From Escherichia phage vB_EcoS_L-h 1M, in sequence record NC_073086.1: DNA of 45,204 nucleotides; one strand, 5' to 3'. The notes beneath the pieces were generated by a model, which was given only the letters and a program-made list of their open reading frames with translations, did no database searches and was not told the origin of the DNA. Position numbers and translations under genes: made by a program. Below, piece after piece: positions 1,564 to 44,044 of this stretch. Within the stretch, counting starts at the first letter, position 1, and every line of letters begins with the position of its first letter.

Positions 1564-1842
1564 TTACGCGACCAATTCAGCAACCAATATATCACAGTCG
1601 GCTATGTTGTCGATAACGCGAACGTCCGCACCGCGGCGGGCCATTCGTTCATGTTCACGTACCTGGTGCGGCTTCGGTTTTCCTCCGGGGCGCTTCACTT
1701 CGACGAACACTATTTTGCCGTTGATGATAATAATCAGGTCGGGCGCACCCGCGCGCCCCTCCCATGCCAGTTTTCGGCAGAATCCGCCGACCTCTTTAAC
1801 CCGCTTCATCAGGTGACTCTGCACCTTGCCTTCGGGGGTCAT
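1564..1842 (-). CDS. VRR-NUC domain nuclease
   Basis: motifs 'GAPDLIIIINGKIVFVEVKRPGGKP' typical of VRR-NUC PD-(D/E)XK fold. Confidence 0.7.
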   Translation of the reverse strand: MTPEGKVQSHLMKRVKEVGGFCRKLAWEGRAGAPDLIIIINGKIVFVEVKRPGGKPKPHQVREHERMARRGADVRVIDNIADCDILVAELVA

Positions 1843-4551: not shown

Positions 4552-5337
4552 TTAACGGCGGCGACGTTTACGTGGTGCTTCGTCTTCGTCGTCTTCGTCC
4601 TCATCTTCGTCATCGCGTGGCTTACGACGTTTACGAGGTTTCTCATCTTCGTCGTCTTCGTCGTCATCGCGGCGCTTGGACTTTTTGGACTTGCGCGGCT
4701 TGTCGTCCTCATCATCGTCATCACGACGTTTTGACTTCTTAGCCTTGCGCGGGCTTTCGTCTTCGTCGTCGTTGTCCAGGTCTTCGTCGGAACATGAAGA
4801 CCCGCCACCTCCGAAGGCTTCGCCGTCTTCACGGAATCGCAGACCCAGCAAGCCCGCCCCGAGTCCCTTGCCGTTGGTATTGTTCCACGCCCAAATATCA
4901 AGTGACACGTTGCAATAACAACCGGAGTAGATCTCCTGGCCTTCGATCTCGTCGCCTTCTACGGTCAGACCTTGTTCAGTCTGCTTCTCGCCGAGTGACG
5001 TTTGAATGATAGGCTGTTTGAACGATTTGGCGTTGATATACAACATGCCTTCGAATTCTTCGGTAACTTCATCGCGCTCGTCGCCGTCGCGAACTGCACA
5101 TTCCTTAGAATCCTGGGCGTAGTGGCGGTCCATCCACTTATCGGCATTCTTCTCAGATTTCAGCTTGTCGGTGAGCACTGCACGCGCTGCCGCTTCCACT
5201 TTGTCCACCTGCGGATCTTCTTTATCAAGAAGAATCACGGCACGGTATGCCGGTTTTTGTCCATCCTGTTTAGGGGTATCACGTTCCCAAATTTTCAGGA
5301 AGCATACGCGCACATTTTTCAGGTTGACTTTAGCCAT
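4552..5337 (-). CDS. ssDNA-binding-like protein (DUF2815-type) with alternating acidic/basic C-terminal repeats
   Basis: N-terminus 'MAKVNLKNVRVCF'; start ATG 5335-5337 (rc) with GAGGA RBS; C-terminal (D/E)n-PRK-(K/R)n repeated 4x. Confidence 0.55.
   Translation of the reverse strand: MAKVNLKNVRVCFLKIWERDTPKQDGQKPAYRAVILLDKEDPQVDKVEAAARAVLTDKLKSEKNADKWMDRHYAQDSKECAVRDGDERDEVTEEFEGMLYINAKSFKQPIIQTSLGEKQTEQGLTVEGDEIEGQEIYSGCYCNVSLDIWAWNNTNGKGLGAGLLGLRFREDGEAFGGGGSSCSDEDLDNDDEDESPRKAKKSKRRDDDDEDDKPRKSKKSKRRDDDEDDEDEKPRKRRKPRDDEDEDEDDEDEAPRKRRRR
4560..4800. repeat. degenerate ~60-bp tandem repeats encoding charged tail of SSB-like protein
   Basis: repeated CGTCTTCGTCnTCATC...GCGnGGCTT units; protein level acidic block + PRK + basic block x4. 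Confidence 0.45.
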
Positions 5338-5427
5338 TTTCCAATTCCTCATTTTCACATGTATCGGGGTTATTGTGAGCCACCCCGTCCGGCTTGGTTG
5401 CTAATCTACTTGGTTGCGCCTGAGNGG

Positions 5428-7093: not shown

Positions 7094-7281
7094 TATTCCA
7101 CCCTTGAAAATTGAGCAATGTAATAGTCGTGTTTAACATTGGCCCGCTTCGCGGCTTCGTTCATGGTAGCCGCCAAACCTCTGGCTTGAGTCCAGCAGCA
7201 ATTCCAGTTCTGATTCATAACGATTTCGGGTTGCTCATCGCCGGTAATACGGCAGCGAAATAAAACGAAAAATATAGCCAT
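7093..7281 (-). CDS. hypothetical protein
   Basis: ORF track; stop/start overlap with downstream nuclease gene. Confidence 0.3.
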   Translation of the reverse strand: MAIFFVLFRCRITGDEQPEIVMNQNWNCCWTQARGLAATMNEAAKRANVKHDYYIAQFSRVE

Positions 7282-7711: not shown

Positions 7712-8221
7712 TTAGTCTTCCAGTTCGAAATAGGTTTCGACGATTTCTTTCAGATCTTTGTGGAAATCTTCCACGTCGTCATCTTCCAGCTTGGCGATTG
7801 ATTTGATCTCGAACGCTTCCAGCAGGTCGTCAAATTCGTCGTTCGCATCGTCATCATCACCGCCTGCGATAATCGCGGCATACTGTTTGATTTCGTCGCG
7901 CATCTCTGCCAGCGGGTCGGCATCTTTCTTACCTTTGCCTTTCGCTGGTGCTTTTTTACCCTTCGCCGGTTTTTCGTCTTCGGCTTCATCGTCGTCATCT
8001 TCTACGACTTCTTTTTTGGCCTTACCTTTCGCCGTGGCTTTTTTACCTTTCGCCGGTGCTTCGTCTTCAGCGTCGTCATCTTCTACGACTTCTTTTTTGG
8101 CCTTAGCTGGCTTTTTATCTTCCTGCTTACCAACGGCAGCGCCCACGGTTTCATAATGTTTTGCGATGATTTCCAGTGCTACTACGCCGCGAGTGATCAG
8201 GTTTACGATTTGCTCAAACAT
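7712..8221 (-). CDS. highly acidic, lysine-rich repeat protein
   Basis: start at ATG 8219-8221 (rc) with GGAGA RBS; 'KPAKGKK...EVVEDDDDEAEDE' repeats from ~80-bp tandem DNA repeat. Confidence 0.45.
   Translation of the reverse strand: MFEQIVNLITRGVVALEIIAKHYETVGAAVGKQEDKKPAKAKKEVVEDDDAEDEAPAKGKKATAKGKAKKEVVEDDDDEAEDEKPAKGKKAPAKGKGKKDADPLAEMRDEIKQYAAIIAGGDDDDANDEFDDLLEAFEIKSIAKLEDDDVEDFHKDLKEIVETYFELED
7925..8110. repeat. tandem ~80-bp repeat inside acidic protein gene
   Basis: units beginning CGTCGTCATCTTCTACGACTTCTTTTTTGGCCTTA at 7991 and 8071. Confidence 0.5.
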
Positions 8222-8446
8222 GGTGTATCTCCGATTGGTTAAGTTTAGGTGTCGACCATTAACTTCGTCGGTGGCCTTAACATAGTGCCCGGTTGCGCGT
8301 TCTCCCTTTCGGGTAGTGGACCGGGTTATATAATCACGGTTGGGAATCCTGACACTTCGATCCGGCCCCTGCGTTGCCCCTCTCCAGTTTGCTTCCTGCA
8401 TCCTGTCGACGAGGTGAATGATAGATTGGTTGCAGATGGGTGTCAA

Positions 8447-8480
8447 CAACTAATTTAAAAAAAAAGCGCCGAGGCAAAAT
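8447..8480 (-). terminator. hairpin with 9-nt A/T tract (terminator-like, minus orientation)
   Basis: A9 then GCGCCG...CGGCGC stem with 13-nt loop; lies in divergent control region. Confidence 0.3.
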
Positions 8481-8561
8481 GCACCGGCGCTAACCAATAA
8501 GAGACAATGAGACGGGAATTATTATTACACGCGTGCGCGACCGTTTCAATATCCAAAGGAT

Positions 8562-8590
8562 TTGACACCGTGCAGTTTTGGGTGTAGTTT
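8562..8590 (+). promoter_or_regulatory. sigma70-like early rightward promoter
   Basis: TTGACA (8562-8567) - 17 bp - TAGTTT (8585-8590), ~30 bp upstream of ATG 8622. Confidence 0.5.
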
Positions 8591-8621
8591 CGTTGGTCAT
8601 TAACCAACAGGAGACTGAATT

Positions 8622-8951
8622 ATGAATATCAAAGAAGCAATTGAAGTGTTATCTAATGCAATCCGCGGCGAAGCGGGTAAATCCTGGTATTACACAAANG
8701 NGGNGGATACTCTGTTATTTGAAGTGTCCAGATTATCGCGTGCTGAGAAGGAGCTTACCGCGAAGCTGGAACTACTCAATGGTACGGCAGCCAGCAAGCT
8801 GCAAAAGCACAATGAAGAAATGGAAGAANACAAAAAGCAGGTTATCCGTTTGCGCGACGAAGGGAAATCATGGGCGATGATTGCAGAGCTAACCGGAATT
8901 AATCAGAGCACCGTGCGATCCTGGGTACGCAATAATAAAACCTCTAAGTAA
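8622..8951 (+). CDS. HTH DNA-binding regulator
   Basis: C-terminal HTH 'SWAMIAELTGINQSTVRSWVRN'; first gene after TTGACA-N17-TAGTTT promoter. Confidence 0.6.
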   Translation: MNIKEAIEVLSNAIRGEAGKSWYYTXXXDTLLFEVSRLSRAEKELTAKLELLNGTAASKLQKHNEEMEEXKKQVIRLRDEGKSWAMIAELTGINQSTVRSWVRNNKTSK

Positions 8952-11226: not shown

Positions 11227-11330
11227 ATTTTGCGCGCATTGGTTGCCATTTTGAGTGTTTTTAGCTGGTCGCATTGGTTGCCGTGTGGTGTAAATATAGT
11301 GAATAGTTATGCAATAAAACTGCATAAAGT

Positions 11331-11489
11331 AAGCGGGACAAAAAGCGGGACAGACCAGGGGCGGGACAAAGCGGGACAGCACCCCTGTCCCACCCCGGAT
11401 GACGCGGCCTGGCGGGGAGCGGGACAGGCGGGACAAACCCCAGTCTTTCAGACTAGACGGGGGTCAGTTGGCCCCCTCGTCTGAGACTG
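11331..11489 (+). repeat. composite element copy A: GCGGGACA iteron array plus GC-rich stem-loop
   Basis: 6 direct + 1 inverted GGGACA(G/A) units within 11331-11428; hairpin region 11441-11489. Confidence 0.7.
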
Positions 11490-11648
11490 CATAAAATCCG
11501 GGATTGCATAATACACGGCAGCATATTGGAAATCGCGGTCGTCGCTGAACTAGGCAACCAATGCGAGTTGCAGAATGGTGGGTGGGGAATGCAGTATGCA
11601 GTTACAGCAGATAGCGATCAACTTTTTCATGCGCATGATTAATATTGG

Positions 11649-11685
11649 TTGCATTCGTGCCAGCACCCTGCTAGATTGGTTGCAC
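11649..11685 (+). promoter_or_regulatory. promoter with ATTGGTTGCA operator-like repeats
   Basis: TTGCAT - 17 bp - TAGATT (11672-11677), followed by GGTTGCAC; motif also at 11644-11653. Confidence 0.5.
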
Positions 11686-11705
11686 ACCAACAAGAGGACT
11701 GAACA

Positions 11706-12032
11706 ATGAAAAAATTAATCTGGAATTACGCAATGGCTATGGCGAAGGCACAAGAAGCGGCGGAGTTCGCCGGTGAGGGGGTGGAAGCAGTAGAAAGACT
11801 ATCGGCAGCGTGGGCCGTTGTGCGGGTGATGCGGCGGGCCATCGCCGTTATGCTTGAGCGCCGCTTCGACACGATGGAAGAGATCCAGCCACTGGCGAAC
11901 GCCATCCAGGACTACGCGCTTGCATTCTCCCGTGAGCGCCTGGCGTATCGCTTCGGGATCGGTGAGACGGCAGTGACAAACGTCGCCCGGATTAAAGCAC
12001 AGCGCGAACTATTTGCCCAGCTTGCGAAATAA
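11706..12032 (+). CDS. hypothetical early protein
   Basis: ORF preceded by TTGCAT-N17-TAGATT promoter and conserved leader 'ACCAACAAGAGGACTGAACAATG'. Confidence 0.5.
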   Translation: MKKLIWNYAMAMAKAQEAAEFAGEGVEAVERLSAAWAVVRVMRRAIAVMLERRFDTMEEIQPLANAIQDYALAFSRERLAYRFGIGETAVTNVARIKAQRELFAQLAK

Positions 12033-12040
12033 GGGCCAAA

Positions 12041-12310
12041 ATGGTCCGCAGACGAGCTAAACAGCTTTCGTGGCATATTCCACTGCATTGTATACGCATA
12101 TGGGCTAAGAATGCGACTGAGGGCGATTCTGTGTTCTGGAGCTATCGCGACGATGTGAAGCCGTTGACGCAGACACGCTACTTGCACCAGTTCGCAGCAA
12201 AACACGATTTCAGGGTGCGGACCTCCTTGCAACCAATGGGAATCCGTATTACATTACGCCGGAAGCCCGCCGTTGAGCGGGTAGGCAAACACTGGAGACT
12301 AAGCAAATGA
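12041..12310 (+). CDS. hypothetical protein
   Basis: ORF track; AAGGG RBS; stop overlaps next ATG (ATGA). Confidence 0.35.
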   Translation: MVRRRAKQLSWHIPLHCIRIWAKNATEGDSVFWSYRDDVKPLTQTRYLHQFAAKHDFRVRTSLQPMGIRITLRRKPAVERVGKHWRLSK

Positions 12311-14970: not shown

Positions 14971-14997
14971 AAGCCCGGTTAATTCCGGGCTTTTTAT
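14971..14997 (+). terminator. rho-independent terminator
   Basis: stem AGCCCGG / CCGGGCT, loop TTAATT, then TTTTTATT. Confidence 0.6.
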
Positions 14998-15201
14998 TGC
15001 TTGACTTGCAACCAACATAGACGCCATACTGCGACCAATCAACGAGAGGAGTAGTAACTATGGCACGTAATGATATTTGGGTTTTGGCGATCTGGACCAC
15101 CGCAGCATTCATTGGCATGGTTATTTGCGAATTGCTATAACCCGCCACAATAGGGACCGTGGTATATTGTCCTCGGTCCCATAATCAGGAATGGATTAAA
15201 T

Positions 15202-16560: not shown

Positions 16561-16587
16561 AGCCCGCCGATTTGGTGGGCTTTTTTG
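16561..16587 (+). terminator. rho-independent terminator
   Basis: imperfect stem AGCCCGCC / GGTGGGCT followed by T6. Confidence 0.45.
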
Positions 16588-21674: not shown

Positions 21675-22439
21675 TTAGCGCGGAATACCGCAAATCTCGT
21701 TGAGAGTTTTCACATCCAGCGCCACCGCCGTGGATTTTGGCTTATCCGGGTAAGGGATGAATTGCTCAACTTCAGGCCATGCCTTAATCAGCTTCTTATC
21801 GGTATTGTGCATGTCCAGCACACCGGTAACGGTAAACTTGAATGCGTCATACTTAGCACGCAACTCACGGCGGGCCTTGTCGTTACGGTCAAGGCGCTTG
21901 CAGAAGTCATGATCTGCCGGGAAATCCGCACGGCAGCGTGGCTTATAGATCGGCAGCGATTTTCCGTCCTCGTCCACTTCACACACTGAAGCCAACATAA
22001 CTGTCTCGAACCCCGGAACGATATCTCCGAGATCAGGCGAGAGCGTATTCATATATTTCTCTTCCCAGTATCCGCGATGTACGCGGTATTGGCGACCGTC
22101 ACCGCTCAAGGACAAGATGCGAACATTGCCGCCTGCGTTGATTTCAAAGGTGGCGTCGTAAACGCTGCCGATACCCTTCGGGCGATCTGTGTCATAGCGA
22201 TATGTTGCCTTGTTGGTGTATACGCTGACGTTGTACATCTGCGACTGGTCGTCGCGGATTGCCTTGATATGCTCGCGGAGCGCTGCGAACGTGCGAATGC
22301 CTTCCGGCATACAGTCCAGCGTGATTGCGTACGCCAGGTCGCGAGAGTCCATCATGATTGTTTTGGCTTCGGTAGCGATTTCGTGGTCGCGCAGGATGTT
22401 AGCCAGGATCTGATTTTTAATGTCTTTCGTCAGTCTCAT
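21675..22439 (-). CDS. hypothetical protein (opposite-strand cassette in structural module)
   Basis: 254-aa ORF antisense to surrounding late genes; shares bidirectional terminator at 21651-21672. Confidence 0.5.
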   Translation of the reverse strand: MRLTKDIKNQILANILRDHEIATEAKTIMMDSRDLAYAITLDCMPEGIRTFAALREHIKAIRDDQSQMYNVSVYTNKATYRYDTDRPKGIGSVYDATFEINAGGNVRILSLSGDGRQYRVHRGYWEEKYMNTLSPDLGDIVPGFETVMLASVCEVDEDGKSLPIYKPRCRADFPADHDFCKRLDRNDKARRELRAKYDAFKFTVTGVLDMHNTDKKLIKAWPEVEQFIPYPDKPKSTAVALDVKTLNEICGIPR

Positions 22440-22478: not shown

Positions 22479-22793
22479 TTAGTTGAATTTGATGTTGCCA
22501 CCGGTGGAAGTTAAGCGGGCACATACAGCTTCAACGGCATCGACGCACATGAAATCGTTAAAGGCTTCGACCAGGGCGTTTATGAAAGATGCCGGAACCA
22601 GGCCGCAAGCCGGATTATCGAATATCGCGGAGTTGATCGCCGCTTTTGCCGCTTCAGAAGCATTCATGCTCTGGCACAGATTCAGCGCTTCCGCGTTACG
22701 CATTGCGTGAAAGGTAAAGGTATTAGCTACGGTAGCTTTATTGAAACGGGCCATTGCGGCGTCTACTGGAGTTGCTACGGTCATGTTAGTCAT
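22479..22793 (-). CDS. hypothetical protein (first gene of opposite-strand cassette)
   Basis: ATG 22791-22793 (rc) with AAGGAAG RBS; preceded by TTGCAA-N18-TATATT promoter carrying the ATTGGTTGCAC motif twice. Confidence 0.45.
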   Translation of the reverse strand: MTNMTVATPVDAAMARFNKATVANTFTFHAMRNAEALNLCQSMNASEAAKAAINSAIFDNPACGLVPASFINALVEAFNDFMCVDAVEAVCARLTSTGGNIKFN

Positions 22794-22828
22794 TTTGTCT
22801 TCCTTCATATCTCTGTTGGTGTGCAACC

Positions 22829-22858
22829 AATATAGTGCAACCAATACGCGGATTGCAA
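22829..22858 (-). promoter_or_regulatory. leftward promoter of opposite-strand cassette
   Basis: minus strand TTGCAA - 18 bp - TATATT then GGTTGCACACCAACAGAG leader; ATTGGTTGCAC twice. Confidence 0.45.
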
Positions 22859-22865
22859 GCGAATT

Positions 22866-22893
22866 TTGCGATTATTTTTATCGCTGATAATAT
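22866..22893 (+). promoter_or_regulatory. promoter candidate for scaffold/capsid operon
   Basis: TTGCGA - 16 bp - TAATAT, ~55 bp upstream of scaffold ATG. Confidence 0.3.
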
Positions 22894-22947
22894 TAAAGCG
22901 TGAAGTCGAGCGGGTGGCCTGCTCTGCCATAATCCCAGGGGGATAGC

Positions 22948-27687: not shown

Positions 27688-28000
27688 GCGGGACAGGCGT
27701 GGCGTCCCGTTTTGTCCCGCCTCTGCAAAACTATGTACCTACTCAATTCCACTGCATTAACTCAAAACGGGACAGGCGGGACGTCCCCCTTTGTCCCGCC
27801 CCTCAAAAGTGAATGGCTATGCGGTTTTTCTGCATTAAACAAACGGGACAGAAAGCGGGACAGAATGAGGCGGGACAAAGCGGGACAGCACCCCTGTCCC
27901 AGTCAGTGCTGCCGCTGGTTTTTGCCGATCGGGACAGGCGGGACAAAGCCCAGTCTTTCANACNANACGGGGGNCAACGGCCCCCCTCGTCTGAGACTGA
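27688..28000 (+). repeat. composite element copy B: expanded GCGGGACA array plus the same stem-loop
   Basis: at least 10 direct and 5 inverted GGGAC units; shares exact 31-mer with copy A; hairpin has N calls. Confidence 0.7.
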
Positions 28001-28067
28001 ATAAGGTTTGTTTTAAAATCGCTGATACAATATCCATCGGCAACTGCATAAAAAAGGGGACTGCATT

Positions 28068-28409
28068 ATGGCAGATCAAGCGGCAGGCATCATGATGAAG
28101 GCTGATGTTGCACAAATCAGAACGGCAAATACTGTGCTGGACTCCTTCGCACAGAAATCCGAGAACACAGAAAACAAGATGAAGAAATTAAACGACACCC
28201 TCGGCAAATCCAAAAAGGTGACGAGTGACGCCGCGGGCGGAATGGAGAAGCTCGCGACTGAATCGCAGCGCGCAGCCGATGGCATGACAAAACAGGAGCG
28301 ACTTGCCAACAGGTTAGGCATGTCGACCAAAAACCTGGGCTTTGCCTCGCGTAACGCCGCATTCCAGTTACAGGATATCGCAGTTACGCTTGAGATGGGG
28401 ATGCCTTGA
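28068..28409 (+). pseudogene. tape measure N-terminal duplicate copy ending in in-frame TGA
   Basis: 113 codons, ~90% identical to 28794 onward; TGA at 28407-28409 where copy 2 has GTG; same frame as downstream ORF. Confidence 0.4.
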
Positions 28410-32860: not shown

Positions 32861-33601
32861 ATGTTAACGCAAAAGGTTAAAAGCGATATCGCCGCGCACG
32901 TTGCGGCATGTCTGCCTGAAGAAGCCTGTGGGCTGGTCGTCATGGTAGGCCGCAAACAAGTATTCGTCCCATGTCTGAACGTATTCGAAGACCCGACCGG
33001 CGTGCGCTCACGCAAAGACGCGTTCACGATTAGTGATATGGCCTGGATGGATGCGGAGGATATGGGCGACGTCGTGCGCGTAGTCCACTCTCATCCGGGC
33101 CAGCGCGAGCTTACCCCATCACTGGGCGACGTTAATGGATGCAACGGCAGCGGCGTAGTCTGGACCATCACTAACGAATATGGCGACTTTATCGAGATCG
33201 ACCCTGAAGACCCGCCGCTGGTAGGGCGTCGATTTGTTCTCGGAATTACGGATTGTTACGGCCTCGTCATGGACTGGCACAAAAAGCAGGGAGTAAACCT
33301 GCCAGACTTCCGCGTGCCATATAACTGGTGGGAGACAGGCGAAAATCTGTATATGGATAATTGGTACGGCGCGGGCTTCAGGGAGTGTGAGGAAAATACG
33401 CCGGGGGCGATGGTCATCATGCAGATTAGCGCGCCAGTGCCTAACCATGCCGGAATCTACCTTCCGGGCAACCAACTACTACACCACATCTACGGCAGCC
33501 TGTCGAGCGTGGTCCCCTTCCGGGCAGGATTTTTCCGGGACAATGTGGTTAAATGGGTACGTCATAAAGACCTACCGGGGAATATCACAGAATGGCAATG
33601 A
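32861..33601 (+). CDS. tail assembly protein K-like (JAB/MPN + NlpC/P60)
   Basis: JAMM motif 'HSHPGQRELTPSLGD'; Cys/His pair 'ITDCYG...NHAG'. Confidence 0.7.
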   Translation: MLTQKVKSDIAAHVAACLPEEACGLVVMVGRKQVFVPCLNVFEDPTGVRSRKDAFTISDMAWMDAEDMGDVVRVVHSHPGQRELTPSLGDVNGCNGSGVVWTITNEYGDFIEIDPEDPPLVGRRFVLGITDCYGLVMDWHKKQGVNLPDFRVPYNWWETGENLYMDNWYGAGFRECEENTPGAMVIMQISAPVPNHAGIYLPGNQLLHHIYGSLSSVVPFRAGFFRDNVVKWVRHKDLPGNITEWQ

Positions 33602-38868: not shown

Positions 38869-38948
38869 AGACAGACACCGGCGTTATTCGCGATGAGGCC
38901 AATGCCGCGAAGGCTGAAGCGCAAGCCGCCAGCACTGCCGCGCTTGGA
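38869..38948 (+). repeat. 80-bp direct repeat, copy 1 (copy 2 at 39595-39674, 1 mismatch)
   Basis: fills the whole intergenic gap between lipoprotein and fiber start codons; duplicates an internal fiber segment. Confidence 0.75.
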
Positions 38949-41784: not shown

Positions 41785-41806
41785 TGCAACCAACCTATTG
41801 GTTGCA
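41785..41806. promoter_or_regulatory. palindromic operator-like site TGCAACCAA-N3-ATTGGTTGCA
   Basis: inverted half-sites of the recurring motif; overlaps stop codon of 41795..42265. Confidence 0.45.
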
Positions 41807-43693: not shown

Positions 43694-43720
43694 TGCAACC
43701 AATATGATTATGCAACCAAT
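43694..43720 (-). promoter_or_regulatory. two direct copies of motif (rc ATTGGTTGCA) upstream of terminator and small membrane gene
   Basis: TGCAACCAAT at 43694-43703 and 43711-43720. Confidence 0.4.
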
Positions 43721-44044
43721 TTACGAATAAAAATTTGGGTCGCGCGCTACGTCTACCAGATACAGATTGCTCATGCGGTTGCCGTAGTGCCCTGGTGTGC
43801 GCTGGCGGCACACAACGGCGAAGCCTGGGGGAATTGTATTGCCCGTCTCGATAATCCACGCCACGCGTGCGCCAGACAGCGTCTTGCCGTTGTATTCGAT
43901 GCGCGTGCCACCATCGGCAGTGTTAAGGTTGCCAATCTTACAGCCTGTGGACTTCAGGCGAATGACACCGGTCTTGCTGTCGTAGGAAAAAAGCTGATTG
44001 GTCATTGCCACTGAAAAGTCGATTGCGTCGAATGCAGTATTCAT
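43721..44044 (-). CDS. HNH homing-endonuclease-like protein
   Basis: 'FSYDSKTGVIRLKSTG...NGKTLSGARVAWIIETGNTIPPG...GHYGNRMSNL' resembles HNH_3-type phage endonucleases. Confidence 0.5.
   Translation of the reverse strand: MNTAFDAIDFSVAMTNQLFSYDSKTGVIRLKSTGCKIGNLNTADGGTRIEYNGKTLSGARVAWIIETGNTIPPGFAVVCRQRTPGHYGNRMSNLYLVDVARDPNFYS

Follow-up and report, generated by a model that had tools for sequence, protein, structure and literature searches.

A strict 8-nucleotide word within early and accessory promoters of Escherichia phage vB_EcoS_L-h 1M, a candidate operator for a phage-encoded helix-turn-helix protein

The genome of Escherichia phage vB_EcoS_L-h 1M (NC_073086.1), analyzed here as one window of 45,204 bp, aligns end to end with that of Escherichia phage vB_EcoS_011D5 (MT478993, genus Dhillonvirus). 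The two are equal in length and coordinates and differ by 3,173 mismatches (7%), arranged in mosaic blocks of which some are identical and some ~10% divergent; the window contains 78 N. The gene coordinates of the MT478993 annotation fit the window and are used throughout. Our subject is a recurring 8-mer, TTGGTTGC, and its relation to the divergent early control region, which holds one copy (core 8426..8433, plus strand) and the gene of a predicted DNA-binding protein (8622..8951, plus strand, 109 aa). The leftward early promoter of this region (8418..8446, minus strand; TTGACA-17-TATCAT) agrees with the consensus at 11 of 12 positions and is the top-scoring sigma-70-like site of the genome. 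It faces a leftward block that starts with gene 7712-8221 and includes genes for an exonuclease, a single-stranded DNA (ssDNA)-binding protein and a DNA polymerase, and a promoter is annotated at the orthologous place in phage HK578. Gene 8622-8951 opens the rightward early unit, 10 bp upstream of the helicase-primase gene. The 8426 copy, which reads GCAACCAA with respect to the leftward promoter, is located in the spacer of that promoter, 2 nt from the −10 hexamer. An earlier note on this DNA had placed the surrounding 13 nt (8422-8434) in transcription orientation upstream of an early unit; the site in fact belongs to the minus-strand promoter rather than to a rightward one for gene 8622, and a leftward terminator stands between it and that gene.

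When all 8-mers were counted without preselection against a third-order Markov model, TTGGTTGC was found in 18 exact copies (~1.5 expected), ranking second among the over-represented 8-mers of the window; it ranks first or second in the Dhillonviruses SO-1, HK578 and 'rolling', which carry 19-22 copies each. Fourteen of the 18 copies are intergenic, in a window in which 8.2% of bases are intergenic (binomial p = 1.4e-12), so that the intergenic enrichment presupposed by the earlier note holds on a formal scan. Sequences with one mismatch to the core show no such enrichment (29 in total, one of them intergenic), indicating that the word is strict. It occurs mostly as A-TTGGTTGC-A, with A before the core in 13 and after it in 11 of the 18 copies. 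Seven copies are preceded by TAnA, far over chance (p = 6.6e-6), and TAnA plus core reads as a −10 hexamer, TAnnTT, the last two bases of which are the first two of the core. The extended word TANATTGGTTGCA was matched nine times with at most one mismatch (0.17 expected; none of 100 shuffles reached nine), the matches including 8422-8434, 11641-11653, 11672-11684 and, on the minus strand, 22822-22834, 41785-41797, 43694-43706 and 43711-43723. ATTGGTTGC was matched 13 times (0.5 expected), among others by the CATTGGTTGCC copies at 11238, 11273 and 11554 (minus) and by the second copy at 22837 (minus). All sites cited in the earlier note are present and its 13-nt motif does recur; as a unit it resolves into a −10 hexamer joined to the 8-mer core, and copies at 5394 and 5410 (plus) and at 15008, 1580, 12229 and 33468 (minus) had gone unlisted.

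Fifteen intergenic sites were compared with their orthologs in 6-17 genomes and viral contigs. Core columns are 99.4% conserved, compared with ~90% for the surrounding intergenic DNA, and 92.5% of core columns are invariant, compared with ~65% in the flanks. Between a copy and the adjacent hexamer, the sequence varies freely among genomes at 11645/11676 and 22823/22837, with core, −35 and −10 unchanged. The word is also retained in a distant clade represented by two metagenomic contigs, L062 (20 kb) and L173 (10.7 kb), which are ~72% identical to the window where alignable. There it is the top 8-mer of L062 (13 copies) and is present ten times in L173, nearly always between genes and at orthologous places. 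TTGGTTGC is thus under strong purifying selection. Copies frequently come in pairs: 12 of 18 have a neighbor within 40 bp, and paired intergenic copies number 10 of 15 (3.8 expected, P = 0.007), arranged directly or inverted at distances of 12-35 bp, which fits a dimeric binder. The 8-mer itself is asymmetric, and relative to the flanking genes about ten copies run forward and six in reverse.

Candidate sigma-70-type promoters were collected by a consensus scan and a position weight matrix (PWM) scan. A whole copy of the word lies in 10 of the 19 intergenic candidates, compared with 2.5 ± 1.5 upon random intergenic placement (none of 5000 trials reached 10), a count that is partly circular where the motif itself provides the −35 but not where it lies in a spacer. 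The motif-bearing promoters have −35 and −10 elements near TTGACA and TATAAT, 16-18 bp apart and correctly oriented before a gene; those at 22858, 41807, 5431, 15001, 11649, 43715, 1613, 1583 and 12227 all rank in the top 0.01% of the PWM scan. Across genomes their hexamers are conserved and their spacers variable. Within these core promoters the copies adopt both orientations and at least three registers. In the first, the core lies in the spacer, forward and 2 nt from the −10 at 22858→22829, 41807→41778 and 43715→43687, and reversed at 8446→8418 (2 nt from the −10) and 5431→5403 (1 nt). In the second, it overlies the −35, reading TTGCAN or TTGCAA (11649, 43715, 1583, 41807 and 12227). In the third, represented at 11676, 22823, 1580, 15008 and 8426, the core merges with the −10 as TAnA-TTGGTTGC-A and spans the start site. 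Of the earlier proposal that the motif stands upstream of early units in the direction of transcription, the association with promoters survives; the position upstream and the uniform orientation do not. No copy of TTGGTTGC is present in the good promoter candidates at 16572 (ahead of the terminase gene), 26878 (ahead of the major tail gene) and 15112 (ahead of gene 15202), and the 16572 candidate is itself conserved across genomes. The suggested link to early and accessory units is upheld by this absence from structural-gene promoter candidates.

Given that the in-phase −10 at seven of the 18 copies is so far from chance, the word might be no binding site at all but a promoter part, either a −35-like TTGCA, which resembles TTGACA, or a −10-proximal discriminator and start element, GGTTGCA, distributed through duplicated and recombining cassettes; indeed, one promoter cassette precedes different cargo genes among genomes. 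We regard this explanation as improbable. All eight positions are invariant in every register, including the spacer, of which sigma-70 reads no position, and in the reverse orientation. In addition, copies that flank the putative origin (below) lack hexamers, and the word persists in the distant clade, the intergenic DNA of which has diverged to ~72% identity or is unalignable. Since its invariance extends over spacers, both orientations, several registers and places off promoters, a site for a DNA-binding protein is the best reading of the word.

The likeliest binder is the 8622-8951 product. Its residues 65-105 match HTH_23, Sigma70_r4_2 and HTH_28 above the Pfam cut-offs, which bears out the helix-turn-helix (HTH) that the earlier note had proposed for this protein. 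The C-terminal 60 residues, comprising a three-helix HTH, are nearly invariant in the family (SWAMIAELTGINxSTVRSWVRN) and in this respect equal the motif, while the N-terminal ~45 residues are hypervariable, HK578 having an unrelated, longer N-terminus. In an AlphaFold2 model (mean predicted local distance difference test score 84), a short helix is followed by a long one that spans residues 23-79, and then by a compact HTH domain. When the PDB was searched with this protein by structure and by sequence, matches were confined to generic HTH domains of three helices and, weakly, to a coiled coil (vimentin), and we therefore make no family assignment; the model suggests that the protein is probably a coiled-coil dimer with generic HTH heads, outside the characterized families. 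Databases label the family as Gam-like nuclease inhibitor, transposase or resolvase, and PHROGs files it under 'transposase'; these labels are unsupported by its domain content. It also does not look like a sigma factor, as its only matches to such factors are of the region-4-type HTH and region 2 is lacking. The gene has its own promoter, TTGACA-17-TAGTTT (8562-8590), followed by a degenerate copy of the word, TTGGTCAT (8593-8600), and by ACCAACA (8603-8609); in L062 and L173, an exact GCAACCAA lies between the promoter and the start codon. From this arrangement, autoregulation of the gene appears possible.

Because the motif and the recognition helix are both invariant across the family, direct covariation is uninformative, and we instead made use of contrasts in invariance, which the putative replication origin provides. 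Just past the stop codon of the helicase-primase gene, an iteron array of six GCGGGACA (11333..11435, plus strand) forms the core of the putative origin and corresponds to the repeat 'region B' of SO-1. It is bracketed by copies of our word that have flanks of their own (CGCATTGGTTGCC): two copies 35 bp apart on the near side (11239..11281, plus strand) and one inverted copy on the far side (11554..11561, minus strand). None of the three shows an evident promoter or hexamers; the phage specificity and the association with promoters proposed earlier are upheld for the element, the latter with the exception of these copies. Altogether, the 450-bp origin region contains five of the 18. Clusters of GCGGGACA number two, 16 kb apart, one after the helicase-primase gene (11333-11428) and one around gene 27733-28095 (27688-27938), near 'region A' of SO-1, a layout that presumably resembles P4 ori/crr. 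As a tandem, regular array that co-varies with the initiator, GCGGGACA behaves as origin iterons do; TTGGTTGC, which only brackets the array, does not. In L062 and L173, GGTGCC(A)-type repeats take the place of GCGGGACA, which is absent, and identity of the helicase-primase drops to 66%; the HTH end of the 8622-8951 product retains 83% identity there, and TTGGTTGC has not changed. Among small early proteins of unknown function in these contigs, only the first 30 residues of the 7712-8221 product are equally conserved. The iterons may thus follow a diverging partner, for which P4 alpha offers an analogy and the helicase-primase is a plausible candidate, and the comparison suggests that TTGGTTGC tracks something that stays constant.

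Homologs of the 8622-8951 product were found only in Dhillonvirus-like phages. In the closest outgroup with the same gene order, Salmonella phage SaI_NFG_5579 (42 kb; helicase-primase 43% identical), the syntenic place is taken by an XRE-type regulator, and a single copy of TTGGTTGC is present. This co-distribution of motif and protein fits the HTH protein as the binder, on the few lineages compared. Scans of IMG/VR for the motif with its leader and for paired motifs returned, besides Dhillonvirus contigs, only an unrelated conserved coding region and coding tandem repeats, and did not inform the distribution.

Another binder or modifier of the word could come from the host, as a transcription factor or nucleoid protein, or from the phage, as the C-terminal domain of its helicase-primase or as its C5 cytosine methyltransferase, the latter with the GC of the motif as its target. 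Helicase-primase and methyltransferase are both present wherever the motif is, and the half-sites TTGGT and ACCAA resemble GntR/FadR-family boxes. Such host boxes are palindromes with another spacing, and most copies of the word lack an ACCAA partner. Divergence of the helicase-primase goes together with that of the iterons, TTGGTTGC remaining constant, and a methyltransferase target has no reason to concentrate in core promoters. We accordingly assign these candidates little probability. Boxes of the MotA-like, sigma-54, CytR and PdhR/GntR types were considered separately, by informal comparison with their consensus sequences, and were rejected for unfit spacing or symmetry.

Taken together, we lean, with moderate confidence, toward (A)TTGGTTGC(A) being the operator of a phage DNA-binding protein, most likely the 8622-8951 product, that turns down early and accessory promoters. 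On this proposal, operators have come to lie inside most early, DNA-metabolism and accessory sigma-70-type promoters, where they occupy the spacer beside the −10, overlap the −35 or merge with the −10 and span the start site, and they also stand beside the iteron array of the putative origin. The protein would be made early from its own strong promoter and, as it accumulates, would fill the sites, of which a promoter usually has two, and impede RNA polymerase. Early and accessory transcription would be turned down in a manner similar to that exerted by lambda Cro, while the structural-gene promoter candidates, which lack a site, would be left free. We infer repression, rather than some other outcome of binding, from two properties of the sites. 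The motif-bearing promoters, including the strongest of the genome, are already near consensus and should need no activator, so that hindrance of RNA polymerase is the simplest effect of occupancy. Furthermore, two orientations and at least three registers fit occlusion by a repressor better than a fixed activator geometry or a promoter element.

The phage protein might instead act positively, or in both directions, either by recruiting or re-targeting host RNA polymerase in the manner of T4 MotA or as a stand-in for sigma region 4, or by organizing the origin for the helicase-primase, with transcription control as a DnaA-like side effect. The match of its HTH to Sigma70_r4_2, the five promoter candidates in which the motif provides the −35, the crowding of copies around the origin, three of them promoterless, and the proximity of its gene to the helicase-primase gene all speak for such a role. 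We nevertheless judge it unlikely, since the −35 copies come in both orientations and many further copies occupy the spacer or overlap the −10 and start site, leaving no single activating geometry, and since the promoters score well unaided. Moreover, the protein lacks sigma region 2, and neither the MotA nor the AsiA family is represented among the 20 early proteins that were scanned against Pfam. A broader and more speculative version, which we consider quite doubtful, would make the 109-aa protein a dual organizer in a virulent phage, marking the origin for the adjacent helicase-primase and gating nearly all early and accessory promoters through one asymmetric word. The onset of replication would thereby be coupled to early shut-off, as by DnaA; the hypervariable N-terminus would be the evolving part, for instance under pressure from host defense or a partner, and the motif cassettes would be fixed swap junctions.

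Several points weigh against a repressor of this kind. The irregular spacing of the copies (9-47 bp, direct and inverted) and the asymmetric site are unusual for a simple dimeric HTH repressor. The enrichment of the fused form TAnA-TTGGTTGC-A (seven of 18) raises the prospect that the core also serves, in a positive sense, as a discriminator or start region. Were the DNA polymerase and ssDNA-binding protein promoters repressed, the timing would have to be well controlled. In HK578 the promoter of the HTH gene lacks a copy, so that autoregulation does not extend to the whole group. The argument from co-distribution rests on one outgroup, and many Dhillonvirus-specific genes, including that of the C5 methyltransferase, share it; a host factor is a possible binder. 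Finally, in the literature searched we found no account of the TTGGTTGC motif or of Dhillonvirus transcription control, nor 5'-end mapping or RNA-seq data for any Dhillonvirus.

The proposed arrangement can be set beside four known systems. Like Cro and CI with OR and OL of lambda in textbook accounts, it comprises a small HTH protein encoded in a divergent early control region and sites that overlap −35, spacer and −10 elements, as repressor operators do and as seen here in 10 of 19 candidates. The protein, upon accumulation, would likewise turn early transcription down, and autoregulation is plausible in part of the Dhillonvirus family. The lambda operators, however, are 17-bp near-palindromes at two loci, while the present site is asymmetric, spans 8-10 bp and occurs in 18-22 copies at about ten loci as irregular direct or inverted pairs, with no two-fold symmetric operator. 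In addition, the phage annotation holds no integrase or immunity region, and the HTH is sigma-4/homeodomain-like rather than of the Cro/XRE kind. The stoperators of mycobacteriophage L5 gp71, which Brown et al. in 1997 are said to have described, reportedly are 13 bp long, have a single orientation relative to transcription and are thought to act on elongation in lysogenic immunity. They resemble the present sites in being short, asymmetric and mostly intergenic (here 14 of 18), in numbering 20-30 copies per genome, in that one class overlaps a promoter and, on the present proposal, in serving one phage HTH protein. The sites studied here differ from them in their mixed orientation, in their place within core promoters and in that the phage appears virulent. 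As with the T4 MotA box of the textbooks, a phage word replaces or overlaps the −35 of sigma-70-type promoters, here in five candidates; the MotA box has one orientation fixed near −30, unlike the several registers and both orientations seen here. Textbook DnaA boxes, finally, are similar asymmetric, 9-mer-like sites at origin flanks and in promoters, and the candidate binder is encoded beside the helicase-primase; however, the candidate has 109 aa and no AAA+ domain, and separate GCGGGACA iterons hold the origin core, an origin function of either repeat being a presumption on our part. By analogy, the arrangement would work like a Cro-type early turn-down, with sites that resemble L5 gp71 operators/stoperators.

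Among the remaining sites, that at 5394..5417 (plus strand) consists of copies at 5394-5401 and 5410-5417, reversed with respect to the leftward promoter TTGACC-17-TAGATT (5431→5403) upstream of the ssDNA-binding protein gene 4552-5337. One copy lies in the spacer 1 nt from the −10, and the other lies 1 nt past the −10 over the start site. At 1568..1587 (minus strand), in the 3' end of gene 1564-1842, an exact copy (1580-1587) and the variant TTGGTCGC (1568-1575) accompany tandem promoter candidates, TCGACA-16-TATATT (1613→1586), the −10 of which is fused to the core, and TTGCTG-17-TATAGT (1583→1555). The site at 15008..15038 (minus strand), directly past a terminator (14971-14992), likewise combines an exact copy (15008-15015) with the variant TTGGTCGC (15031-15038), the latter exact in SO-1 and rolling. 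It coincides with overlapping, back-to-back promoter candidates, TTGACT-18-CATACT (plus strand, 15001-15030) and TTGATT-17-TATGTT (minus strand, 15042→15014).

At 11645..11683 (plus strand), two copies 31 bp apart form a promoter at 11649-11677, TTGCAT-17-TAGATT, the −10 of which is preceded by TG; the −35 comes from the upstream copy, and the downstream one joins the −10 and extends over the start site. The promoter TTGCAA-18-TATATT (22858→22829) contains two copies 14 bp apart (22823..22844, minus strand), one in the spacer 2 nt from the −10 and one fused to the −10, and is predicted to drive the accessory unit 22479-22808 together with the Nmad5 gene 21675-22439. In the promoter TTGCAT-17-TATCTT (43715→43687), two copies 17 bp apart (43695..43719, minus strand) are present, the upstream one giving the −35 and the downstream one occupying the spacer 2 nt from the −10. 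The sole palindromic pair is the inverted one at 41786..41805. It forms TGCAACCAA-CCTA-TTGGTTGCA (41785-41806; full sequence TGCAACCAACCTATTGGTTGCA), a 9+4+9 palindrome as the earlier note had recognized, and lies within the promoter TTGCAA-18-TATATT (41807→41778), such that one copy overlaps the −35 and the other sits in the spacer 2 nt from the −10.

Two single copies lie in coding sequence. That at 12229..12236 (minus strand), within open reading frame (ORF) 12041-12310, supplies as TTGCAACCAA the −35 of a candidate internal promoter, TTGCAA-17-TACATT (12227-12255), and is kept in SO-1, HK578 and rolling. The ORF itself is unannotated in MT478993, yet it matches a PHROG family and is annotated in relatives. 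The copy at 33468..33475 (minus strand) is antisense within tail gene 32861-33601; it is conserved, as coding constraint explains, and is probably not functional. The divergent intergenic region between lipoprotein and tail-fiber genes (38869-38948) has no copy in the window, while SO-1, HK578 and rolling carry one there (AAATTGGTTGCA...).

The earlier note had also described a leader shared by several first genes. ACCAACA does precede the Shine-Dalgarno sequence at 8603, 11686 and 22814 (minus), and follows the core at the latter two places, the promoter at 11649-11677 being succeeded by the leader ACCAACAAGAGGACTGAACAATG; the 12456 gene shares only ACAGGAGACTGA and lacks ACCAAC. The common leader is thus largely Shine-Dalgarno context, with no stable RNA hairpin at 11706 or 22793. 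This bears on whether the conserved element could act at the level of RNA, as a TTGGT...ACCAA leader hairpin or through pairing of leaders with a small transcript candidate (8514→8457). TTGGT-N5-ACCAA is present at 11676, 22823 and 8593, and by inspection the CUCUUAUUGGU of the small transcript candidate matches ACCAACAAGAG at 10 of 11 positions. Such a function is nonetheless very improbable. A start ~7 nt past the −10 would leave the TTGGT half untranscribed, and the ACCAA partner is missing from most copies, as noted above. The leaders of 11706 and 22793 fold with −4.4 and −3.8 kcal/mol, no better than shuffled sequences (about −4.6 kcal/mol), and the hairpin was rejected on this account. 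Pairing of the small RNA with ACCAACA leaders is likewise unsupported, as duplex energies do not favor the leaders with the motif, which rank sixth and ninth, that of 8622 falling outside the top 12.

The small transcript candidate is an observation in its own right. A strong minus-strand promoter, TTGAAA-17-AATAAT with TG (8549→8521), is followed ~35-60 nt on by a terminator (stem 8490-8466, nine T at 8465-8457), predicting a transcript of ~58 nt between the divergent early promoters (8457-8549, minus strand). Across seven genomes the stretch hardly varies, its predicted fold is good (z = −4), and HK578 annotates a promoter there; neither it nor the rest of the window has an Rfam match at the gathering score.

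The conservation of promoter cassettes across genomes stops just past ACCAAC(A) (...TTGGTTGCACACCAAC(A)), and the genes that follow differ between phages: at least four unrelated first genes succeed the 22858-type cassette (gene start 22793) and at least three the 11649-type (gene start 11706). The cassettes therefore mark junctions at which cargo or accessory genes are exchanged. Two small ORFs, 11596-11709 and 22805-22930, are annotated as 'hypothetical protein', one of them with the remark 'no significant similarity'; promoter and motif sequence makes up most of both, and they are probably not genes.

Two further repeats were noted in the window. The octamer GCTGCCGT is its most over-represented 8-mer (29 copies, ~3 expected) and is dispersed in coding DNA, with copies for example at 7249, 8133, 8784, 10556 and 38049 on the minus strand and at 1376, 41429, 43056 and 44707 on the plus strand. 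Of 22 minus-strand copies, 20 lie in the rightward block (8-38 kb), and four of seven plus-strand copies lie in leftward gene regions, so that the coding strand, a handful of exceptions aside, mostly reads ACGGCAGC. SO-1, HK578 and rolling likewise have more copies of the octamer than expected, and the Salmonella outgroup phage shows enrichment of related words (ACGGCAGC, ACGGCAAC). A Chi-like or polar signal would be one explanation of the octamer, an artifact of codon use another. Within the minus-strand gene 7712-8221, an identical 28-nt hairpin with T-run (GTCGTCATCTTCTACGAC TTCTTTTTTG) occurs twice on the plus strand (7991-8008 and 8072-8089), 81 bp apart, which points to an internal tandem duplication in this gene.

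Dhillonviruses are common E. coli phages that are represented in the BASEL collection and feature in phage-therapy work and defense-system studies. We found no earlier description of an operator-like TTGGTTGC in Dhillonvirus promoters in the literature searched, and the switch that we propose would be of the ordinary phage regulator/operator kind. The annotation of a gene widely labeled Gam, transposase or resolvase is corrected. Portable phage-controlled promoters and natural sites of cargo exchange may offer a handle for engineering. A strict 8-mer at about ten promoters, together with a plausible regulator, amounts to a testable map of the early and accessory regulon of these phages, and TTGGTTGC would help to distinguish early and late units when further genomes of the group are examined.

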